NCBI GenBank assembly: GCA_964364285.1
Contig: CAYIKZ010000003.1
Span: forward strand, 2,491-66,490
Length of the DNA stretch: 64,000 nucleotides
Reading direction: 5' to 3'
Source: an uncultured Candidatus Saccharibacteria bacterium
GTDB lineage: Bacteria > Patescibacteriota > Doudnabacteria > UBA920 > VMFF01
In this document: positions 13,663 through 64,000 of the stretch, in pieces
Numbering within the stretch: the stretch's first letter is position 1
Layout: each line of letters starts with the position of its first letter
Program-made: the position numbers and the translations under genes
Notes under the pieces: model-generated
Database searches by the model: none
The model's input: only the letters and a program-made list of their open reading frames with translations
Told to the model about the DNA's origin: nothing

Positions 13663-14481
13663 ATGAAATTACCAATAGACAATTTGGGTTATCCAGTAAA
13701 ATTGCAGATCGGAGAATTTTCTGGATCTGGTTTTATCATTAATCAAGTGAACCAACTTTATTTAGTAACAGCAAAGCATGTTATTTATCAGCAGGATCAG
13801 ATAACAAAGGTTTTTAATTTGCTAGATAAAAAAATGATAATGATTACTTACCCCATGATTTCATCAGAAAAAGTATCATCTAAGCCAAGAATTTTTGAGT
13901 TAAACCTAGAGTTGTTATCAGCTTCTGCAGACTTAAAAGCACACGAGCAGGCTGATATTGTGGTTATTAAATTGGGAGAGCTTCAGAAAAAAAACGAAAT
14001 TTTTTATATTGACTTTCCTGCATCGATAAAAACTATTCAGGAGTCTGAAGGTACAATCATAAATTATGACATGAAGGGATCAAGACGATTTGAACAGGTA
14101 CAAATAACAAACGATATATTTATTCTTGGTTACCCTGTATCTCTTAGTACACCTGAAATGAAACAGATAGATTACAATTCGCCATTAGTTAGGAAGGGAA
14201 TCATAGCTGGAAAAAATTATTTAAATAAGTCATTGATCCTTGATTGTCCTATATATGGTGGAAATAGTGGCGGCCTTGTTTTAGAGATGAATGAAACAGG
14301 AATAGGTAGTGGTAACATTCATCTTATTGGAGTAGTTGTGCAGTTTGTACCATTTCTAGATCAGTGGAGAAATGTTAAATTTCCTCAATTGTATAACACA
14401 AATTTACAAAATTCCGGTTATTCTGTAGCTTTGCCTGTTGATTACATTTTTGATCTTATTGGAGAAATTGAGTCAAATTAA
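13663..14481 (+). CDS. Trypsin-like (S1/chymotrypsin-fold) serine protease, cytoplasmic (no signal peptide)
   Basis: Catalytic triad context: His in VTAKHVI, Asp in QADIVVIKL, Ser in YGGNSGGLV (GDSGG-like). Confidence 0.6.
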   Translation: MKLPIDNLGYPVKLQIGEFSGSGFIINQVNQLYLVTAKHVIYQQDQITKVFNLLDKKMIMITYPMISSEKVSSKPRIFELNLELLSASADLKAHEQADIVVIKLGELQKKNEIFYIDFPASIKTIQESEGTIINYDMKGSRRFEQVQITNDIFILGYPVSLSTPEMKQIDYNSPLVRKGIIAGKNYLNKSLILDCPIYGGNSGGLVLEMNETGIGSGNIHLIGVVVQFVPFLDQWRNVKFPQLYNTNLQNSGYSVALPVDYIFDLIGEIESN

Positions 14482-14510: not shown

Positions 14511-15476
14511 GTGAAAGGAACATTAAGTAAAACAAAACATATGTATATAAAAGAATTCAAAAAGCTTAATAAAAAGAGCGTTTCAGAAGCAGGAGGCAAA
14601 GGAGCTTCCCTGGGAGAAATGACCAACGCAAAAATGCCAGTTCCACCGGGGTTTGTTGTTCTTGCTTCTGCTTTCAATCGTTTCCTAGAAGAAACAGATT
14701 TAGATACTGAAATAGAGGCATTGTTTAAAAAGGTTAAACACAATGATATCAACTCTGTTGAAAAAGCTTCTGTTGAGATCAGAGAACTCATTGCAGAAGC
14801 AACAATGCCGAAAGATCTTCAACAAGATATCTTAAAATCCTTCAAAACGTTAAAAACAACATATGTTGCGGTAAGATCCTCTGCAACCGCGGAAGACTCT
14901 AAAACCGCTTCCTGGGCAGGGGAGTTAGAGACATATTTAAACGTTACTGAAAAAAACGTAATTGCAATGGTTAAAAAATGCTGGTCGTCTTTGTTTACTC
15001 CAAGGGCGATTTTTTATCGCTATGAAAAGAAATTAAACAAGAAGGTAGTTTCTGTTGCAGTTGTTGTTCAAACAATGGTTCAATCTGAAGTTTCTGGTAT
15101 TAGTTTTACAGTTCATCCTGTAACAAAAGATTACAACCAGATGGTCATTGAAGCAGGCTTTGGTTTAGGAGAAGCAATTGTTTCTGGATCTGTTACTCCT
15201 GATACATACGTTGTACACAAAAAAGACTTTTCAATACTGGATATAAACGTATCAGAACAATCAATGATGATTATAAAATCGGGAAACAAGAACTTGAACA
15301 AAAAACTTTCTAAAAAAGATGGTGGAAAACAGAAACTTTCAGGGAAACAAATCGTTGAGCTTGCAAAGATATGTAAGAACATTGAAAAACACTACAAACA
15401 CCCACAAGACATAGAGTGGGCATATACAAATAATAAGTTCTATATAACTCAATCAAGACCTATTACAACACTTTAA
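14511..15476 (+). CDS. Stand-alone PEP/pyruvate-binding ATP-grasp domain protein (PPDK_N, N-terminal nucleotide-binding module of PEP synthase / rifampin phosphotransferase). The likely true start is the ATG at 14541
   Basis: SVSEAGGKGASLGEMTNAKMPVPPGFVV near the N-terminus and DIEWAY...YITQSRPITT at the C-terminus are hallmarks of the PPDK_N domain. There is no attached His or TIM-barrel domain. Confidence 0.8.
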   Translation: MKGTLSKTKHMYIKEFKKLNKKSVSEAGGKGASLGEMTNAKMPVPPGFVVLASAFNRFLEETDLDTEIEALFKKVKHNDINSVEKASVEIRELIAEATMPKDLQQDILKSFKTLKTTYVAVRSSATAEDSKTASWAGELETYLNVTEKNVIAMVKKCWSSLFTPRAIFYRYEKKLNKKVVSVAVVVQTMVQSEVSGISFTVHPVTKDYNQMVIEAGFGLGEAIVSGSVTPDTYVVHKKDFSILDINVSEQSMMIIKSGNKNLNKKLSKKDGGKQKLSGKQIVELAKICKNIEKHYKHPQDIEWAYTNNKFYITQSRPITTL

Positions 15477-15480
15477 CAAC

Positions 15481-16788
15481 ATGCCAAAAGAGAAAAGCGC
15501 CAAACAGATTGAATTGGAGGTTTTAAAATACAAAGACTGGGAATGGTGGGCAGAGCGTCCTTTTGGTGCTTTTGTTATGTCACTCTTCAGAGAGGGGCAA
15601 AAAAGAGAATACATACGCAAACTTGGTGTTGACGCAGAGTGGCCAGTCTTACTCTTTCAAAAAGGGACTTTTTACAAAAGTGAAACAGTTTGGAATATCT
15701 TTGCAAAACAGTTAGAAAAATATTTAGCAAAAGGTGGAACGGTTTTTAGCATAACAAAATCATGTGAAAGATTCTTGATTGATAGCAAAAAGTTTGTAAG
15801 AGAGCTTAACAAATCAAAACTACCACCACAAAAGAAACTCCAAAAACTGCACGAACCATTAACATTAATCATGAGTTATGTTTGGTTAACTCATGGTTTT
15901 GAACATATTTACAAAAAGCGCCTTTACAAAGAAGTTCCGAAATATGTAAAAGGGGACATAGACAAATATATTGGTGATATTAGTTTTCCTATTAAAAAGA
16001 ATGCGCACCATCATTTAGAAAAAACTTTAAGAAGCAAACAGCCTTTGGAACAAATTCGAGAACGATGGGGCTGGATTAAAGCTCGAGATGGTTTTTCTGA
16101 TATATTCACAATCAAAGAATTAGCTTTAGAGCGTAAGAAACTAAAGGGAACAAAACACTCGACCTTTAAAAAAATAAGGGTTCCTAAAGCTTTACAATCA
16201 CTAGCAAAGGTATCCCAAGAGCTAGTGTATTTAAGAACGTTAAGAACTGACGTGCTTTATGAATTAATGTATTTAGCTCGTCCGACACTTAATGAGGTTG
16301 CAAAGCTATACAAAATTCCTTTCAAAAGCTTAAGAGACTACGCTGTTTGGGATTTGGTTCAAGGAAAACTTAAAAAATACCTATATACTCCTGATTTGTC
16401 AGCAATCAGTGTTGGTAAGGACTTTGTATTATTAGATCATCCGATATTGAAAGACAGATACGGGAAAATGGATTCCATAAAAGGGTTAATAGCAAACAAA
16501 GGATTTGCTGTCGGTAGAGCAAAGATAGTTAAGATTGCTCACGAGATAGGAAAGGTTAAAAAAGGGGATATACTATTTGCACCAACAACCTTCCCTTCCT
16601 TTATCATGGGAATGAAAAGAGCGGCAGCTTTTGTTACTGACGAAGGGGGTATTACATCACACGCAGCAATAGTTGCTAGAGAGTTAAACAAGCCATGTAT
16701 TATAGGGACGAAAATAGGAACAAAAGTTTTTAAAGACGGTGACTTAGTAGAAGTTGATGCTAACAAAGGTATAATTAAAAAGCTATGA
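15481..16788 (+). CDS. Paralog 1: variable N-terminal domain (~330 aa) + C-terminal PEP-utilizing-enzyme mobile (phospho-His swivel) domain
   Basis: C-terminal GDILFAPTTFPSFIMGMKRAAAFVTDEGGITSHAAIVARELNKPCIIGT...EVDANKGIIKKL is the swivel domain with the catalytic His in GGITSHAAI. Confidence 0.8.
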   Translation: MPKEKSAKQIELEVLKYKDWEWWAERPFGAFVMSLFREGQKREYIRKLGVDAEWPVLLFQKGTFYKSETVWNIFAKQLEKYLAKGGTVFSITKSCERFLIDSKKFVRELNKSKLPPQKKLQKLHEPLTLIMSYVWLTHGFEHIYKKRLYKEVPKYVKGDIDKYIGDISFPIKKNAHHHLEKTLRSKQPLEQIRERWGWIKARDGFSDIFTIKELALERKKLKGTKHSTFKKIRVPKALQSLAKVSQELVYLRTLRTDVLYELMYLARPTLNEVAKLYKIPFKSLRDYAVWDLVQGKLKKYLYTPDLSAISVGKDFVLLDHPILKDRYGKMDSIKGLIANKGFAVGRAKIVKIAHEIGKVKKGDILFAPTTFPSFIMGMKRAAAFVTDEGGITSHAAIVARELNKPCIIGTKIGTKVFKDGDLVEVDANKGIIKKL

Positions 16789-18266
16789 AGTTAAAATATA
16801 TAACTGACAAAGACCCATGGATGTTAGCTGAAGACATTCCAGATATTCATTTTCAATTTACTCAAATCTGGTCATCATCTTTTGTTAACGATTTATCGAG
16901 AACAGCAAAAAAACAATACAAAAAAATTCTTGTCGTATATCATGGTTTAAATCTAGTGTTTTATTATGGCGAAAAGGACTCTGATGATTTTGCTCAACAT
17001 CTTTTAAAGTTATTAAAAAACAATTCAAGTTTTGGTGACAAGATTAATTACAACATCAGAAAACACTCAGATGGGTTAAAGAAATTTAGTTCGCAGATCA
17101 ATCCTGAATTTCTGATGGGATTATCGAATAAAGAATTGGTCAATTTTTACACAAAACTAGATAGTATTCATACCGAGCTATATACATGGGGTTGGTTACC
17201 AAATGCAGTAGATATGTTCCACGGTAATCTAACAAATTATCTCAAATCGTTATTACGTTTGAAACTAGACGAAGATAAAGTTAATACAGCTTTAGTTACT
17301 TTAAGCACCCACCCAGAAAAAAGTATTCTTCAAAAAGAACATGAATCATTCCTTAATTTGGTAAGTTTAAAACAAAGAAAATCTAAAGAATTTGAAAATG
17401 CTTTGCAAAAGCATTTAAGCAGGTTTTTCTATCTCAAACATTTATGGATAGGAAAAGAAGGTGTATACGATAAAGCATATTATTTGACTGAGATAAAAAA
17501 GTTTTTGGCTTCAGGAGAAAATGCTAAAGTATTGCTTGACAAAGAAAATAAGATTTTTAAAAAGACTTTACAGGAACAGAAAACTCTTATTAAGAAGTTA
17601 AAACTAAATAAAAAGCAAAAACAGCTTTTTAATTCTTATGCGGAGTTCTCTGTTACAAAACTATATAGACGCGATGCGCAAATCTTTTGGTCTTACAAAA
17701 TGGATTATGTTTTTTTAGAATTATCGAAAAGATTTAAAATTAGTTTTTTGCAAGCAAGATGCATGCTACCGAATGAGGTGTATGATGGTTTAATTAAGAA
17801 TAAGCTTTCGGGATCGTTAAGAAATCAATTAAAACAACGCACAAAGTATTTTGTTTATTACGCTGAAAAGGGCTCAGACTTAATATTTTATGGCAAAAGA
17901 GCAAAAGTATTAGAAAATAAAATATCTAAGCTATCTCGACTTGATATTAACGAATTAAGCGGGCAAACTGCTTGTTTGGGTAAAGTTCAAGGAAAGGTAA
18001 AGATCGTTAATTCCATTTCTGACATGAAGAAAATGGAGAAAGGCGATATTCTTATTAGCATTGCTACTAATCCTGATGTAGTACCTGCAATGAGAACAGC
18101 TGGGGCGATAGTAACTGAACAAGGCGGTATTACATCACACGCAGCTATAGTTTCTAGAGAGTTGAATATTCCTTGCATAATTGGAACAAAGATAGCAACC
18201 CAAGTTTTTAAAGATGGTGATATGGTTGAAGTAGACGCGAACAAAGGAATTGTGAGGAAATTATGA
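16785..18266 (+). CDS. Paralog 2: divergent N-terminal domain (~390 aa) + C-terminal phospho-His swivel domain
   Basis: C-terminal GDILISIATNPDVVPAMRTAGAIVTEQGGITSHAAIVSRELNIPCIIGT...EVDANKGIVRKL. ATGA overlap with the upstream gene. Confidence 0.8.
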   Translation: MKLKYITDKDPWMLAEDIPDIHFQFTQIWSSSFVNDLSRTAKKQYKKILVVYHGLNLVFYYGEKDSDDFAQHLLKLLKNNSSFGDKINYNIRKHSDGLKKFSSQINPEFLMGLSNKELVNFYTKLDSIHTELYTWGWLPNAVDMFHGNLTNYLKSLLRLKLDEDKVNTALVTLSTHPEKSILQKEHESFLNLVSLKQRKSKEFENALQKHLSRFFYLKHLWIGKEGVYDKAYYLTEIKKFLASGENAKVLLDKENKIFKKTLQEQKTLIKKLKLNKKQKQLFNSYAEFSVTKLYRRDAQIFWSYKMDYVFLELSKRFKISFLQARCMLPNEVYDGLIKNKLSGSLRNQLKQRTKYFVYYAEKGSDLIFYGKRAKVLENKISKLSRLDINELSGQTACLGKVQGKVKIVNSISDMKKMEKGDILISIATNPDVVPAMRTAGAIVTEQGGITSHAAIVSRELNIPCIIGTKIATQVFKDGDMVEVDANKGIVRKL

Positions 18267-19231
18267 AAAAAATTGATCCAAAAGAATGGCAATTCTATTT
18301 AACCAGACCTTTTGATCTATTTGGTGCTTCACTTTGGCATGGTTGGTATGAATCAAAGTATATACAACACGCTTTGGGTTTTAAAATGGACGAAATAATC
18401 TGTGTTGAAATTAGTCCTCATTTGGTTAGTCAATACAGGGCTAAGGAACAGATGCGCTTACTAACCAAGCATATCCAAAAGCTCATATTTTTAACTCCTA
18501 AAAAATTTGAAAGGTTGCTAAAACATGGTCTTGCTTTAAGCAAGAAAGCAGATAGATATTTAGAAAAGCCACATAAATTTAAAAATTTGGATGACGCTTT
18601 AGAATTTTTCAATGAGTTAATTTTCTATACCACTGTCTTTTCTAACTTTCCAACATTTCTAGATCAAAACAAAAAATTACCAAACAAAGCCATTGGTATG
18701 ATTAGTCAACTTCGCAGTGCTTCTTACTATTCTCCTTTTTTGAAGAAAATAATTATGCCGCTTGCCAAGGCTCATCCCTTAGTCATACTTCAAAAGAAAA
18801 ATCACTCAAAGCGATTTATTTACACAAAGAGGCGCGGTAAAGAAGAAATTCAATGGGTTAAGAATACTAAAAACTTCGTCAAACAATTTGAAACCCATGT
18901 AATTAAATCAAAAGAGATAAAAGGGTTTGCCGCTTATCCAGGAAAAGTTAGAGGCAGGGTTCACTTGGTTCGCGATTTCACAAAACCTGGAAAAATGAAG
19001 GATGGTAGTATTCTAGTTTCAATAAACACTAACCCAAACTTGATGCCTTTAATTCGTAAGGCTTCAGCAATTGTTTCGGATGAAGGTGGTATAACAAGTC
19101 ATGCGGCTATAGTATCAAGAGAATTTAAAATTCCATGCGTCATAGGTACAAAGGTTGCCACCAAGGTACTTAAAAATAATGATTTAGTCGAAGTGGACGC
19201 AAACAAAGGAATTGTGCGAAAATTAAAATAA
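18263..19231 (+). CDS. Paralog 3: divergent N-terminal domain (~220 aa) + C-terminal phospho-His swivel domain
   Basis: C-terminal GSILVSINTNPNLMPLIRKASAIVSDEGGITSHAAIVSREFKIPCVIGT...EVDANKGIVRKL. ATGA overlap with the upstream gene. Confidence 0.8.
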   Translation: MKKIDPKEWQFYLTRPFDLFGASLWHGWYESKYIQHALGFKMDEIICVEISPHLVSQYRAKEQMRLLTKHIQKLIFLTPKKFERLLKHGLALSKKADRYLEKPHKFKNLDDALEFFNELIFYTTVFSNFPTFLDQNKKLPNKAIGMISQLRSASYYSPFLKKIIMPLAKAHPLVILQKKNHSKRFIYTKRRGKEEIQWVKNTKNFVKQFETHVIKSKEIKGFAAYPGKVRGRVHLVRDFTKPGKMKDGSILVSINTNPNLMPLIRKASAIVSDEGGITSHAAIVSREFKIPCVIGTKVATKVLKNNDLVEVDANKGIVRKLK

Positions 19232-19244
19232 TTAAGCAAAACAC

Positions 19245-20126
19245 ATGGAAACAAGAGAAACAGGGGCGGAAAGAAAAGAAACCCAGTCAGTTCCAAGAAT
19301 AAGGTTGGAGTTTTTTAGACATGATGAAAAGGCTAAAGCTTTAGCTGGTCAATCAGATAACGAAGTTCGTTTAAGTGAAAAAGGAAGAATAAACGCGGTA
19401 GAAATTGGCAAAACCAAAGATCCACACCCAGAAGTCGCTATTGCCCTCGGTTCTCCAAGAGAGCGTTCTACAGAGACTGCAATGCGCGAAATGTTGTCAA
19501 AAGAACCAGGCATTACACAAGAAGACACTCTTGAAGACATTCAAGAATTTGTTGCTGGTTCTTTAAAAGTTGGCAGAAAGAACATGGTAGACAAAAGATT
19601 AGATTTTGATTGGCACGGTGAATTTGGCGAAATTGCAGAAGATCGTTATTTAAACAAAAAGGATTATTTACAATTTGCTGTTGAAGAAAGCGATGAGGTA
19701 GTAAAAAGACTTAAAGACCGAACTTCAACAAGCTATACCAGACAAGCAGCAGGGATTGCTGAGATCATAAAGAAATACGTTGGTGTTCTCCCTAACTTTC
19801 AACAAGTTGTAGAACAGGATCCTGATAAATACACTTTGTATGACAACGAAATGCAAAGATTTTTGGGGACACACGCAGATGTAAGCGAATGCTTCCTTCT
19901 TAAGGTCATTGAAATAACAGAAGGGCGAGAAGCCTTAATGCAATTCCTTCAATCAGGTATTAACAAAAACGGTTTTAACTTTAGTGAAGGGTTTAGCGTT
20001 GAAATACTATCAGATGGAATCCTTGTTAGATACAAAGAACGAGAATGGAGCATAAAGCCGGAGCTACTAGATCAAATTATTAAGCAAAGAGACGAATTGG
20101 ATAAAAGTATTGATGAAAGCGATTAA
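19245..20126 (+). CDS. Histidine-phosphatase superfamily (phosphoglycerate-mutase-like) protein with a variant RHD(E) catalytic motif
   Basis: RIRLEFFRHDEKAK...LSEKGRINAVEIGK parallels the PGM block LVRHGESEWN...LSEKGxxEAxxxGK. SPRERSTETA matches the second Arg motif and THADV the distal His motif. Confidence 0.45.
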   Translation: METRETGAERKETQSVPRIRLEFFRHDEKAKALAGQSDNEVRLSEKGRINAVEIGKTKDPHPEVAIALGSPRERSTETAMREMLSKEPGITQEDTLEDIQEFVAGSLKVGRKNMVDKRLDFDWHGEFGEIAEDRYLNKKDYLQFAVEESDEVVKRLKDRTSTSYTRQAAGIAEIIKKYVGVLPNFQQVVEQDPDKYTLYDNEMQRFLGTHADVSECFLLKVIEITEGREALMQFLQSGINKNGFNFSEGFSVEILSDGILVRYKEREWSIKPELLDQIIKQRDELDKSIDESD

Positions 20127-21177
20127 TATACAAAAGTTCAAGCACGATGATTGGACAAAAATCTGGGATGGCGGCTGGAGCATTTTAAGTTGCTCTGATT
20201 TTGGTTATCAGTACACCAAAGGAATTAGATTTGGCAAAAGACCATTTGCTCCTAAATCTATAATCTTTGTTAATTCAGGGCGAAGCTCTGGCTGGATGAG
20301 GCAATCAGACAGAGACATTCTTGGCTCCTTTTTATCAAAGCAAGCGCTTAGATATCCTAAAAACATAATTCAAGTTTGCAGCGAGCTTAAAAAACAATCC
20401 AAAGATATCCTCTCCTTTATCAGAAAACACGGAGATACCGTTGCTAGCTTAAAACTATACGAAGAGTTTTTACATCGAATCTTAATATATTACAAACCAC
20501 ACATTAATGTTAAATATGTTGTTGACTATCTAGATCCCAAGTTCTTAAAGAAATCTTTACCTGTATTAGAAGAAGCTAGATTAACCGCTGAGCCTGTTTT
20601 TAAAAGAACAGAAGAGTTTCTCACTTCATTCGTAAAGATTTTGTCTAAAGAAACAAAGTACAACTACAAGTTAATCTTGTCTCTAACAAGTGATGAAGTA
20701 AGAGAATACTTTCTTAAGAACAAACTGCCAGCAAAAAAAGAATTAGAGCAAAGATACAAAGAATGTGTTTTTCTTCATGAAAACGGGGAATATATACTAT
20801 TAAGAAACAAGGCGGTTAATTCTGTTAAAAAAATAGTACAACCTAAGATTAATAAATCGGAGGTAAGGGGGTTCGCTGCTTTCAAAGGAAAAGTAAGAGG
20901 AGTTGCTCGTATAGTATTGGATCCTAACAAATCAAAAGCATTTAAAAACGGTGATATTTTAATTACTGGATCAACTAGACCTGAGTTTTTGCCAATCATG
21001 GCAAAAGCAAAAGCTTTTGTAACAGATTCCGGCGGTATATTATCCCACGCAGCTATTACAGCTAGAGAAATGAAAAAACCTTGCGTTATAGGTACACAGA
21101 TAGGAACAAAAGTTTTTAAAGATGGCGATTTGATAGAAGTTGATGCTAATAACGGGATTGTTAGAAAGGTGAAATAA
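20110..21177 (+). CDS. Paralog 4: divergent N-terminal domain (~250 aa) + C-terminal phospho-His swivel domain
   Basis: C-terminal GDILITGSTRPEFLPIMAKAKAFVTDSGGILSHAAITAREMKKPCVIGT...EVDANNGIVRKV. Confidence 0.8.
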   Translation: MMKAINIQKFKHDDWTKIWDGGWSILSCSDFGYQYTKGIRFGKRPFAPKSIIFVNSGRSSGWMRQSDRDILGSFLSKQALRYPKNIIQVCSELKKQSKDILSFIRKHGDTVASLKLYEEFLHRILIYYKPHINVKYVVDYLDPKFLKKSLPVLEEARLTAEPVFKRTEEFLTSFVKILSKETKYNYKLILSLTSDEVREYFLKNKLPAKKELEQRYKECVFLHENGEYILLRNKAVNSVKKIVQPKINKSEVRGFAAFKGKVRGVARIVLDPNKSKAFKNGDILITGSTRPEFLPIMAKAKAFVTDSGGILSHAAITAREMKKPCVIGTQIGTKVFKDGDLIEVDANNGIVRKVK

Positions 21178-21629
21178 TGACAATAACTCTTTGTGGTAGT
21201 ATTGCTTTCATTGATCAAATGTATGAGCTAAAAGAAAAGCTTGAGTCTTTAGGGTTTGATGTTTTAATTCCTCCTGACAAAGTTCCAAACAAAGAAGGGG
21301 AGATAGTTGATGCAAAAGATTACTATGCTTCTAAAAAGAGGGCAATGTCTGAGAATAACCATGCTTGGGTTACAGAGGGTAATCTAGATAACAGAATCAG
21401 GGATCACTTTGATAAGGTGACTAAAGGGGACGCAATCCTTGTTGCTAACTATGATAAAAACGGAATTAAATGGTATGTAGGTCCAAATACATTAGTTGAA
21501 ATGGGAGTTGCTTTTTACTTAAATAAAAAGATCTATCTATTAAACCCAGTTCCAGATGTTCCGTACAAAGAAGAGATTCTAGGAATGAAACCAGAAATAA
21601 TGGAAAATGATTTGAGTAAGATAAAATAA
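21177..21629 (+). CDS. Nucleoside 2-deoxyribosyltransferase-like protein (PF05014-like Rossmann fold)
   Basis: N-terminal ITLCGSIAF resembles the NDT YFAGGWF block. C-terminal GPNTLVEMGVAFYLNKKIYLL resembles the NDT catalytic block G-x-x-x-E-x-G-x-A. Confidence 0.5.
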   Translation: MTITLCGSIAFIDQMYELKEKLESLGFDVLIPPDKVPNKEGEIVDAKDYYASKKRAMSENNHAWVTEGNLDNRIRDHFDKVTKGDAILVANYDKNGIKWYVGPNTLVEMGVAFYLNKKIYLLNPVPDVPYKEEILGMKPEIMENDLSKIK

Positions 21630-21652
21630 AACCGCAGACACCTGCGGTTTTA
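21628..21652. terminator. Bidirectional rho-independent terminator (aaaccgcag-acacc-ctgcggttt + T-run), shared by the + cluster and the convergent minus-strand gene
   Basis: 9-bp stem, A-run upstream and T-run downstream. It lies between convergent stops at 21629 and 21670. Confidence 0.65.
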
Positions 21653-21669
21653 TTATCTTTAACCTTTAG

Positions 21670-63659: not shown

Positions 63660-64000
63660 TAACGTATTTTCCTTACTATTCCATGATTAGCATCTACCTC
63701 AACGAAATCTCCGTCTTTAAAAACTTTAGTTGAAATCTTTGTCCCTATTATACACGGCTTATTCATTTCTCTGGAAACAATAGAAGCATGTGATGTAATA
63801 CCACCCTCATCTGTAACAAAAGCACCTGCTTTCTGCATTATGGGAACAAAATCCACAGATGTTGCTTTTGTTACGAGGATATCCCCTGGTTTCATTTTTT
63901 TGAAGTCAGCGGTCGAAAGAATAATTTTAACAGTTCCTTGAATCGTACCCCTGCAGGCCGTAAATCCCTTAACTGACAACTGTTTTGAAACATCATCTAT
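63659..64000 (-). CDS. Sixth PEP-utilizing-enzyme mobile (phospho-His swivel) domain protein, 3' part only (N-terminus beyond the window end)
   Basis: PGDILVTKATSVDFVPIMQKAGAFVTDEGGITSHASIVSREMNKPCIIGT...EVDANHGIVRKI. The reading frame stays open to the window edge. Confidence 0.75.
   Translation of the reverse strand: MDDVSKQLSVKGFTACRGTIQGTVKIILSTADFKKMKPGDILVTKATSVDFVPIMQKAGAFVTDEGGITSHASIVSREMNKPCIIGTKISTKVFKDGDFVEVDANHGIVRKIR

Follow-up and report, generated by a model that had tools for sequence, protein, structure and literature searches.

The 64,000-nucleotide stretch of DNA analyzed here (the window) encodes a protein, labeled HP, whose predicted structure identifies it as a divergent member of the histidine-phosphatase fold, and whose gene lies within an operon of predicted dikinase subunits. 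The same kind of linkage recurs in other CPR genomes. We favor, with about even confidence, a model in which HP works with a two-component dikinase and most likely hydrolyzes the phosphate ester made by one swivel subunit, SW4, or a derivative of that ester. The pairing of HP with a dikinase array is uncharacterized, and it does not amount to a new kind of biology.

Fold and active site of HP

The HP open reading frame runs from an ATG to a TAA codon, and the conservation of the METR... N-terminus among homologues indicates that the start codon is correct. All of the motif blocks on which the original prediction rested were found in the 293-aa product, namely FFRHDE (residues 23-28), LSEKGRINAVEIGK (43-56), SPRERSTETA (70-79) and THADV (209-213). 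The replacement of RHG by RHD in the first block, also part of that prediction, was confirmed and is the majority form of the family: in the homologue alignment the third residue is D in 44 sequences, A in 9, S in 8, G in 5 and E in 1. RHD is thus the family norm and no one-off, and the Gly is dispensable in this family.

When HP alone was compared with Pfam His_Phos_1 (PF00300), the match had an E value of 0.0034 and 17.5 bits, below the gathering score of 21.7 bits. At the level of the family the His_Phos_1 relationship is clearer: 20 of 30 members matched at E<=0.01 (best E 5.7e-10), and five of six members that were rechecked exceeded the cut-off, with up to 39.6 bits. A profile of the HP family matched PhoE/YhfR (PhoE at 4e-5), dPGMs, CobC and SixA in the PDB. 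The AF2 model of HP (pLDDT 93, pTM 0.90) has an alpha/beta phosphoglycerate-mutase-like fold, and all 50 PDB matches listed by Foldseek belong to the histidine-phosphatase superfamily (probability 1.00, best E 5.9e-6), among them the SixA structure 2rfl (E 1.6e-5). TM-scores by target ranged from 0.35 to 0.66 among the matches listed, the highest being that of RosC. The fold expected from the motifs was thus borne out by structure prediction, and the family Pfam matches, the modeled fold and the conserved core residues together place the single-sequence Pfam match beyond chance.

Sequence profiles, PDB sequences included, align just the first ~80 residues of HP, the N-terminal third containing the RH...R block, with canonical enzymes. 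An hhalign comparison with E. coli GpmA covered residues 20-83 only (probability 18%), and a SixA-sized His_Phos_1 protein encoded at another HP locus (L003) aligned with HP within the same block. The only NCBIfam models that HP matched were TIGR03899 and, equally weakly supported, PRK13462, and SixA models were absent at E<=1; a glycolytic dPGM was rejected, no GpmA/dPGM equivalog in NCBIfam being matched. The HP homologues form 67 clusters, every one from CPR-type MAGs, and the clade comprises ~245 clusters at 50% identity. Six longer family members carry C-terminal extensions that are unrelated to one another and gave no clue to function.

The catalytic core that had been predicted is conserved among the homologues as an Arg/His/Arg/His set: R25 (67/67), H26 (67/67), R74 (67/68) and H210 (68/68). 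In the AF2 model R25-H26 is situated where strand beta-1 (residues 18-25) ends, and it aligns with the RHG of PhoE, GpmA and the SixA-sized His_Phos_1 protein. R74 begins helix 73-83 and corresponds in PhoE to the S..R..(E/Q)T block, while H210 directly follows strand 202-209; the N-terminus of a helix and the C-terminus of a strand are the positions expected for these residues in the histidine-phosphatase fold. Since the sequence profiles cover only the N-terminal part of HP, H210 was assigned from fold topology and invariance.

In branch 1 of the superfamily the general acid is a Glu after strand beta-3, and in branch 2 it is the Asp of an HD motif. After strand 113-115 HP reads L119-[N/D]120-F121, apparently where dPGM has its catalytic Glu, and the residue after H210 is Q, A or G in the family. 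A canonical general-acid Glu is not recognizable in the HP sequences, and the acid catalyst seems to be non-canonical. The invariant residues D150 and E215 are candidates for this role, and D150 might instead bind substrate. D150 lies in a helical insertion of ~100 residues (about 84-200) that also carries the invariant S149 and Y178, and a sheet/helix extension of ~50 aa (about 240-293) makes up the C-terminus.

HP family members fused to FGase (3e-29), Peptidase_M20 (5e-37) and a TPMT/TehB-type methyltransferase were each observed once, in metagenome-derived sequence. These fusions suggest small-molecule chemistry for HP. No fusion to a swivel or ATP-grasp domain was seen among the family members examined.

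The predicted dikinase operon surrounding HP

The genes are packed or overlapping across positions 14511-21629, and a single terminator-like hairpin closes the run (Table 1). Pfam identified four PF00391 genes and one PPDK_N gene, in agreement with the original description of HP as embedded among phospho-His swivel paralogs. The PPDK_N gene lacks a swivel domain, and no other domain was found in it using Pfam; in NCBIfam, the match of its protein to the PEP synthase and RPH models is confined to their first ~330 residues. SW3 directly precedes HP, 13 nt separating the two genes, the start of SW4 overlaps the stop of HP, and the start of the nucleoside-2-deoxyribosyltransferase-like (NDT-like) ORF overlaps the stop of SW4.

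Table 1. Features of the HP operon (window positions)
Feature	Position	Strand	Basis
Stand-alone ATP-grasp (PPDK_N) subunit	14511..15476	+	PF01326 E 1.7e-101
SW1, 435 aa, variable N-domain and C-terminal phospho-His swivel (GGITSH)	15481..16788	+	PF00391 E 7.9e-26
SW2, 493 aa, variable N-domain and swivel (GGITSH)	16785..18266	+	PF00391 E 1.1e-24
SW3, 322 aa, variable N-domain and swivel (GGITSH)	18263..19231	+	PF00391 E 4.9e-24
HP, divergent histidine-phosphatase-superfamily (branch 1-like) protein, 293 aa	19245..20126	+	ORF, Pfam, AF2/Foldseek, homologues
R25-H26 codons of the RHD motif; H26, predicted phospho-accepting nucleophile	19317..19322	+	Conservation, AF2
R74 codon (SPRERSTETA), predicted second phosphate-binding Arg	19464..19466	+	Conservation, alignment, AF2
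S149-D150 codons (ESD), helical insertion	19689..19694	+	Invariant, 68/68 each
H210 codon (GTHADV), predicted second catalytic His	19872..19874	+	Conservation, AF2 topology
SW4, 355 aa, substrate-binding and swivel subunit (GGILSH)	20110..21177	+	PF00391 E 1.5e-22, AF2
Nucleoside-2-deoxyribosyltransferase-like ORF, 150 aa, final operon gene	21177..21629	+	PF05014 E 6e-4, below threshold
13-bp-stem hairpin, terminator-like	21625..21654		Closes the + strand operon and a convergent - strand gene

The GGxxSH catalytic loop is kept in all four swivel proteins, whose swivel domains are 54-61% identical and whose N-domains are 22-28% identical. The AF2 model of SW4 (pLDDT 94) had as its best PDB matches in Foldseek the rifampin phosphotransferase (RPH) structures 5fbu/5fbt (E 5.5e-13), and the alignment of ~265 columns far exceeds the swivel domain of ~110 aa. 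SW4 carries TDSGGILSH, which fits the swivel histidine motif T/SxxGGxxxH; its swivel His is H313. A stand-alone PPDK_N subunit together with an RPH-like SW4 points to a small-molecule dikinase made of two components, as in HpeHI/PpsAB, which would convert ATP to AMP.

Several other interpretations of the region were rejected. The NDT-like gene was found beside the array in no other locus and was set aside as a core component, and it is doubtful that it is part of the dikinase system. An upstream trypsin-like protease was likewise set aside, as it did not recur in other loci. HP, PPDK_N and the swivel proteins gave no PADLOC match, and a defense system was discarded.

Linkage of HP and swivel genes in CPR genomes

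HP loci were identified by a genome scan using an alignment narrower than the 30-sequence family set. A swivel gene was located <=400 bp from HP in 15 of 19 independent HP-seeded loci, the HP proteins being 35-81% identical, while flanking genes other than swivel genes were not conserved; a stand-alone PPDK_N gene was present in seven of the 19. The N-domain cluster orthologous to SW4 adjoins HP in eight of these loci, and where an array contains at least three swivel genes the single SW4-type paralogue adjoins HP in six of seven cases. By a rough estimate, the chance of HP-SW4 adjacency under random placement is ~1e-3. One locus (L085) encodes PPDK_N, a swivel protein and SW4 fused in one frame and followed by HP, and in another (L001) SW4 is flanked by two HP paralogues. 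In some CPR bacteria an array of 7-16 kb combines a single ATP-grasp gene with 4-10 swivel paralogues. The recurrence of the association in 15 of 19 loci makes a functional kinase/phosphatase coupling of HP and the dikinase array well founded. Our literature search found nothing relevant joining PEP-utilizers or PPDK_N with a histidine phosphatase or with Patescibacteria.

We also examined the linkage from the side of SW4. HP was present in nine of 80 SW4-seeded loci, and in 10 of the 80 the SW4-type gene was followed by a gene of a second phosphatase-like family, HP2, which has the pattern RH[DAT]...R...GHQWD and some members of which match PF00300. In the 45 SW4-seeded loci that extend 1.2 kb or more in each direction from SW4, HP was adjacent in five and HP2 in three, with neither nearby in the rest. 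As most SW4-seeded loci have neither gene nearby, the phosphatase is accessory.

It is very improbable, in our judgment, that HP is an unrelated house-keeping phosphatase whose position near swivel genes reflects inherited synteny without functional coupling. The absence of HP near most SW4-type genes would be in line with this, as would three of the 19 HP-seeded loci (L003, L005 and L016) that have no swivel gene in the 6-10 kb on either side of HP, and the L005 genome, which encodes both HP and SW4-type genes far apart. However, the adjacency holds at 35-60% HP identity and across several CPR lineages while the other neighbors change, the HP stop and SW4 start codons overlap, and HP2, an independent phosphatase-like family, takes the same position after SW4-type genes.

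Role of HP and comparison with known systems

In our favored model, one ATP-grasp subunit would phosphorylate the conserved His of the interchangeable subunits SW1-SW4, and each of these, having its own substrate-binding N-domain, would hand the phosphate on to a small molecule particular to it (overall, ATP -> AMP + Pi + substrate-phosphate). HP, which fold and conservation predict to be a catalytically competent, if divergent, histidine phosphatase, would be translationally coupled to the SW4-type subunit and would remove the phosphate from the SW4 product, or from a derivative arising after further steps. As is usual for enzymes of this fold, His26 would attack the phosphorus of a phosphate gripped by R25, R74 and H210, and hydrolysis of the phospho-His26 enzyme would follow. 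If HP later removes the phosphate, phosphorylation would trap, activate or protect the molecule for a time only and would not be a terminal modification. We infer this direction of phosphate flow. That HP acts on a small molecule is suggested by the ~100-residue helical insertion with its invariant polar residues, which is unlike the minimal SixA, by the linkage of HP to one substrate-binding paralogue and not to the shared swivel module, and by the fusion of relatives to small-molecule enzymes.

The operon has no conserved enzyme that would act after the kinase and before the phosphatase. This counts against the favored model, since a directly opposed kinase/phosphatase pair would resemble a futile cycle, and it would befit a regulator, such as an eraser that takes the phosphate off the swivel His in SW4 or in every paralogue and so resets or throttles the dikinase. 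SixA and PGAM5 demonstrate that the histidine-phosphatase fold is able to act on phospho-His, and SixA dephosphorylates NPr and the catalytic phospho-His intermediate of Ndk (PMC6282199, PMC7948535, PMC12934123). The location of HP among phospho-His carriers, its overlap with the start of SW4 and the apparent absence of the canonical Glu are all compatible with such an activity, for which the GGILSH loop of SW4-type proteins, as opposed to the GGITSH of the other paralogues, could be a recognition feature. We nevertheless consider it unlikely, because the 293-aa HP, with its insertion and C-terminal extension, is much larger than SixA and matches no SixA model in NCBIfam at E<=1, its linkage is to one substrate-specific paralogue and not to PPDK_N or the swivel module that all paralogues share, and its fusion partners are small-molecule enzymes and never swivel or ATP-grasp domains. 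Furthermore, where HP lies outside an array, in L003, its neighbors are another His_Phos_1 gene and NUDIX, Ham1 and inositol-monophosphatase genes, a context of nucleotide and sugar-phosphate house-cleaning. We are similarly doubtful that HP and an independently recruited HP2 are both dedicated phospho-His phosphatases acting on the SW4-type swivel histidine. The original prediction of an eraser acting on either the phospho-His or the phosphorylated product holds as to coupling with the array, and the evidence leans to the product and not to the phospho-His.

Cofactor-dependent mutases of the superfamily act through a phospho-His enzyme, and His26 might similarly accept a phosphoryl group, supplied either by the SW4 product or by phospho-His SW4, and pass it on to a different position or acceptor, and not to water, as dPGM does. 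The two HP paralogues on either side of SW4 in L001 would suit such a mutase or relay, and HpeH alone catalyzes phosphotransfer between substrates (PMC12167813), a case of phosphoryl shuttling in the same type of system. This remains improbable, as the similarity of HP to dPGM is confined to the N-terminal RH...R block, the mutase-type Glu and substrate-binding residues are unrecognizable in HP, and most characterized members of the fold outside dPGM/BPGM are hydrolases.

The CPR/Patescibacteria have tiny genomes and a metabolism that is largely unknown, yet some of them give over 7-16 kb to such an array. If the arrays act as modular kinases that trap or activate scavenged small molecules, the phosphatase linked to them would mark the exit step and provide a handle for finding the substrates. 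This work defines an uncharacterized histidine-phosphatase clade and flags HP2 as a second clade in the same genomic position, and PPDK_N, SW4 and HP constitute a directly testable three-protein system. Should the phospho-His intermediate prove to be the substrate, the recently recognized SixA-type control of enzyme intermediates would extend to the dikinase family, HP and HP2 would be the first intermediate erasers for the PEP-utilizer swivel family, and CPR bacteria would possess a switch gating an ATP-consuming scavenging kinase.

Among known enzymes, HP has the alpha/beta fold in common with branch 1 of the histidine phosphatases (PF00300), which includes PhoE/YhfR, dPGM, CobC, RosC, the phosphoserine phosphatase PspA and Rv2419c (GpgP). 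The likeness extends to an RHx where beta-1 ends, another Arg that opens a helix and another His that follows a later strand. HP differs in having RHD and not RHG, sequence similarity limited to the first ~80 residues, a large helical insertion, a C-terminal extension and no recognizable general-acid Glu, and in being confined to CPR-type genomes. With SixA it shares the superfamily and the RH nucleophile; SixA has ~160 aa and an open site with no cap, whereas HP is about twice the size, contains insertions and matches no SixA-specific model. We know of no linkage of SixA to PPDK_N/swivel dikinases.

RPH, the best structural match of SW4 over part of its RIF-binding domain and the swivel, has an ATP-grasp domain that is matched by PPDK_N. 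It is a single polypeptide of ~865 aa with no associated phosphatase, while the HP array is split and has one, and the likeness of SW4 to RPH carries no evidence for an antibiotic substrate in the HP array. HpeHI, PpsAB and CreHI, characterized dikinases of split architecture (PMC12167813), have like the HP array a separate ATP-grasp subunit and an RPH-like substrate-binding/His-swivel subunit. The swivel subunits of the HP array, at 322-493 aa, are much smaller than HpeH (71 kDa), there are 4-10 of them per ATP-grasp gene with no carboxylase or oxidase genes alongside, and the hosts are CPR bacteria and not, as for HpeHI-type systems, degraders of aromatic compounds. In the Hpe pathway the dikinase acts first, and removal of the phosphate at a later stage falls to a dedicated phosphatase, HpeD, which is a HAD/NagD enzyme and not a histidine phosphatase (PMC9618137); HpeD thus gives no direct family precedent for the phosphatase type of the HP array as a pathway phosphatase. 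By analogy with these systems, a pathway kinase with a later phosphatase, as in HpeHI and HpeD, would fit the HP array equally well as a writer/eraser regulatory pair.

Family, fold and active site of HP

The HP gene encodes a 293 amino acid histidine-phosphatase-like protein, from ATG to TAA, in which all of the blocks quoted in the original prediction were found: FFRHDE (23-28), LSEKGRINAVEIGK (43-56), SPRERSTETA (70-79) and THADV (209-213). As a single sequence HP gave a borderline match to Pfam His_Phos_1 (E 0.0034; 17.5 bits, below the 21.7-bit cut-off; residues 24-133) and no specific match to the NCBIfam models, and the tests were therefore moved to the levels of family and structure. 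The His_Phos_1 match, borderline for HP alone, was found in 20 of 30 aligned family members (best E 5.7e-10). PDB matches of the family profile, which span the first ~80 residues only, were PhoE/YhfR (4e-5), several dPGMs, CobC, phosphoserine phosphatase and a SixA.

Across 5.8 billion proteins, homologues of HP fell into 67 clusters, near full length and 36-92% identical, most of them annotated as hypothetical. All 67 come from metagenome-assembled CPR/Patescibacteria-type bacteria, among them Doudnabacteria (the closest named, 78-81%), Moranbacteria, Azambacteria and Paceibacterota. When 1.84 billion cluster representatives were searched exhaustively with a profile, 245 matched at E<=1e-30 and 491 at E<=1e-3. 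The family is genuine, though of modest size, and forms an uncharacterised clade restricted to the CPR; we found no description in the literature of this clade or of its pairing with dikinase arrays.

An AF2 model built from the family alignment (pLDDT 93, pTM 0.90) was compared with the PDB using Foldseek, and every one of the 50 matches listed is a structure of the histidine-phosphatase superfamily. Among these are Francisella acid phosphatase, B. anthracis PGM, mycobacterial hydrolases, GpgP, SixA, PGAM5, the F26BPase domain and RosC, which had the best target-normalised TM among the matches listed (0.66). An alignment of 68 sequences revealed a near-invariant core of R25 (67/67), H26 (67/67), R74 (67/68) and H210 (68/68), with K112, S149, D150, R205, E215 and F217 also essentially invariant. 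In the model, strand beta-1 ends at R25-H26, a helix begins at R74 and H210 follows a strand, a predicted placement that matches the topology of a canonical Arg/His/Arg/His phosphate pocket. Modelled fold and core residues place HP in the histidine-phosphatase superfamily, as had been proposed. By the tests run it is neither a dPGM nor a SixA; a glycolytic-PGM reading of HP, a defence-system reading of its array and an antibiotic-kinase reading were without specific support.

The RHD triplet that had been pointed out in place of RHG is present and is the norm for the clade, since the residue after RH is D in 44 of the aligned sequences and otherwise A (9), S (8), G (5) or E (1). Gly is therefore dispensable, and D27 is unlikely, judging from the alignment, to be catalytic. 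HP differs from textbook histidine phosphatases in an inserted helical stretch of roughly 100 residues (about 84-200) and in a C-terminal extension of beta-sheet and helix (about 240-293), both seen in the AF2 model, and in an apparently non-canonical acid site. The catalytic Glu of dPGM lies in L-N-E, and the equivalent place in the HP family appears to read L-[N/D]-F, which leaves D150 or E215 as candidates for the general acid.

Linkage to swivel genes and a second phosphatase-like family

HP-seeded loci were drawn from GTDB species genomes and a protein collection, and all of their ORFs were scanned with profiles for HP, the phospho-His swivel domain, the SW4 N-domain and PPDK_N, the stand-alone ATP-grasp protein. 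A swivel gene lay within 400 bp of HP in 15 of 19 distinct loci, and in a 16th (L017) the HP gene is fragmented, with swivel genes at a distance of about 250 bp. The linked loci cover Doudnabacteria, Kuenenbacteria, Uhrbacteria, Taylorbacteria, Paceibacterota and Peribacteria, with HP identity down to 35-40%, and the largest arrays hold 8 (L006) and 10 (L007) swivel genes. Conservation does not extend to the rest of the flanking genes, whose commonest families occur in at most four loci. Linkage is absent, over the 6-10 kb covered on each side of HP, from L003, where HP neighbours a second His_Phos_1 gene, NUDIX, Ham1 and inositol monophosphatase; from L005, whose contig encodes an SW4-type protein elsewhere; and from L016. 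Mere synteny is a less likely explanation of the position of HP beside swivel genes.

By N-domain clustering, the preferred neighbour of HP is the ~350 amino acid SW4-type paralogue, which adjoins it in 8 HP-seeded loci; of the 7 arrays with at least three swivel genes, 6 show this adjacency. A rough hand estimate, over loci that are not phylogenetically independent, puts chance adjacency at about 1e-3. The reverse association is weak, with HP in only 9 of 80 SW4-seeded metagenome loci, where many SW4-type genes are solitary. Where SW4 has at least 1.2 kb of sequence on either side (45 of these loci), HP is adjacent in 5 and a second family, HP2, in 3. Solitary SW4-type genes repeatedly have a TrmB-type (sugar-specific) transcriptional regulator nearby, encoded on the opposite strand (L091 and seven other SW4-seeded loci), a possible hint at the substrate class.

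HP2, of ~310 amino acids, is encoded directly downstream of SW4 in 10 of the 80 SW4-seeded loci. Its invariant motifs are RH[D/A/T], SDQxR..QT (Arg) and GHQWDLD (His); six of nine members had weak His_Phos_1 matches, and hhalign placed its RH...R block in register with that of HP (E 1e-3). Of its 50 clusters in a large database, five carry PF00300, and JGI labels some PhoE or SixA. HP2 would probably be a separate histidine-phosphatase-like protein that partners the SW4-type dikinase subunit independently of HP. Two different, divergent families of phosphatase-like proteins thus share one position beside SW4-type subunits.

Coordinates of features in the window and in other loci (L); the HP2 genes lie directly or closely behind SW4-type genes
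Feature	Location	Strand
Trypsin-like serine protease	window 13663-14481	+
Seven-gene operon	window 14511-21629	+
PPDK_N	window 14511-15476	+
HP	window 19245-20126	+
SW4	window 20110-21177	+
150-aa ORF	window 21177-21629	+
Hairpin	window 21625-21654	
Further swivel ORF	window 63662-64000	-
Flavin-type flanking gene	L001:1853-2670	
Flavin-type flanking gene	L006:16833-18005	
Flavin-type flanking gene	L009:6634-7071	
Flavin-type flanking gene	L018:12529-12924	
Flavin-type flanking gene	L020:6689-7105	
PNPOx-like gene	L003:9502-9921	
HP-methyltransferase fusion	L013:6896-8554	
Fused dikinase frame	L085:1-2517	
HP	L085:2516-3412	
TrmB-type regulator	L091:8045-8869	
HP2	L098:2293-3336	
HP2	L079:2686-3657	
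HP2	L084:2448-3404	
HP2	L078:11064-12029	
HP2	L066:12487-13479	
HP2	L072:12485-13381	
HP2	L077:2924-3919	
HP2	L070:1261-2157	
HP2	L027:2783-3805	
HP2	L099:5729-6259	

The substrate of HP

HP had been proposed to erase either the phospho-His intermediate or the phosphorylated product. Three observations lead us to favour a small-molecule phosphate, the SW4 product or a derivative. HP is linked to the substrate-specific subunit rather than to the swivel module that all the paralogues have in common or to the ATP-grasp gene. Its large insertion bears invariant polar residues, like that of capped small-molecule members, whereas SixA, a protein phospho-His phosphatase, is a minimal core. Finally, the independent HP fusions are all to small-molecule enzymes, namely N-formylglutamate-amidohydrolase (FGase; P0198, 629 aa, E 3e-29), Peptidase_M20 (P0286, 756 aa, E 5e-37) and a TPMT/TehB-type SAM methyltransferase (L013), each a single case in metagenome-derived sequence; fusions with a swivel or ATP-grasp domain were looked for and none was seen. 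Against a product phosphatase, the canonical acid appears to be missing in HP, and no enzyme for an intermediate step between kinase and phosphatase is conserved in HP operons. SixA removes phosphate from NPr and from the phospho-His catalytic intermediate of Ndk (PMC6282199, PMC7948535, PMC12934123), and removal of phospho-His by HP therefore stays a live rival, albeit a rather improbable one. A mutase or phosphoryl-relay role for HP is a less likely reading.

A small CTP_transf_like (FMN-adenylyltransferase-type) and/or flavokinase gene flanks the array in five related loci, often with an EamA transporter, and L003 has a gene for an FMN-binding PNPOx-like protein ahead of HP. RosC, the best fold match by target-normalised TM, is a flavin-phosphate phosphatase. 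The flavin genes and the RosC match may point to a flavin link; no CTP_transf_like, flavokinase or PNPOx-like gene is present next to the window array.

The operon and its dikinase relatives

HP does lie among phospho-His swivel proteins, with four PEP-utilizers genes (SW1-SW4) and PPDK_N in one tight operon of seven genes, separated by at most 13 nt or overlapping and closed by a single strong hairpin. The first gene encodes the stand-alone ATP-grasp protein (PPDK_N E 1.7e-101), which has no swivel domain. SW1-SW4 each carry the swivel domain at the C-terminal end, with the catalytic GGxxSH loop, and are 54-61% identical in pairs across this domain but only 22-28% across their N-terminal domains. 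The SW4 start overlaps the HP stop. SW1-SW3 read GGITSH, with a Thr at the second position ahead of the catalytic His, as in PEP synthase and PPDK, whose regulatory phosphorylation site it is; the SW4-type proteins (alignment A3) invariably read GGILSH, without this Thr.

The serine protease gene (PF13365) just upstream of the array also matches the PADLOC models PDC-S45, LmuA and RT-Protease, and is not conserved beside the array in other loci. The last gene ahead of the hairpin, whose start overlaps the SW4 stop, has a sub-threshold nucleoside 2-deoxyribosyltransferase-like match and was not found in other loci. A further swivel ORF (E 9e-52 to the window swivel profile) is cut by the window end, giving at least five such paralogues in the genome.

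The SW4 model (pLDDT 94) best matched rifampin phosphotransferase in the PDB (5fbu/5fbt; E about 5e-13, ~265 columns), running roughly 150 columns past the swivel into the RIF-binding domain. In L085 one open frame runs from the C-terminal tail of a PPDK_N protein through a complete swivel protein and on through one of the SW4 type, with HP directly after it; this apparent natural fusion supports the view that these parts work together. PPDK_N, SW4 and HP make a clean three-protein system for experiment, and the HP-dikinase pairing, which is no categorically new mechanism, offers a useful starting point for studying CPR metabolism.

The two-component small-molecule dikinases HpeHI, CreHI and PpsAB pair an ATP-grasp protein with an RPH-like substrate-binding/His-swivel protein (PMC12167813). 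The genes neighbouring HP share that architecture, as a miniaturised, multi-paralogue version of the HpeHI/PpsAB type. In the Hpe pathway the dikinase is followed later by a phosphatase (PMC9618137), an order that would serve as a model for HP, although the Hpe phosphatase is of the HAD/NagD type, unlike HP.
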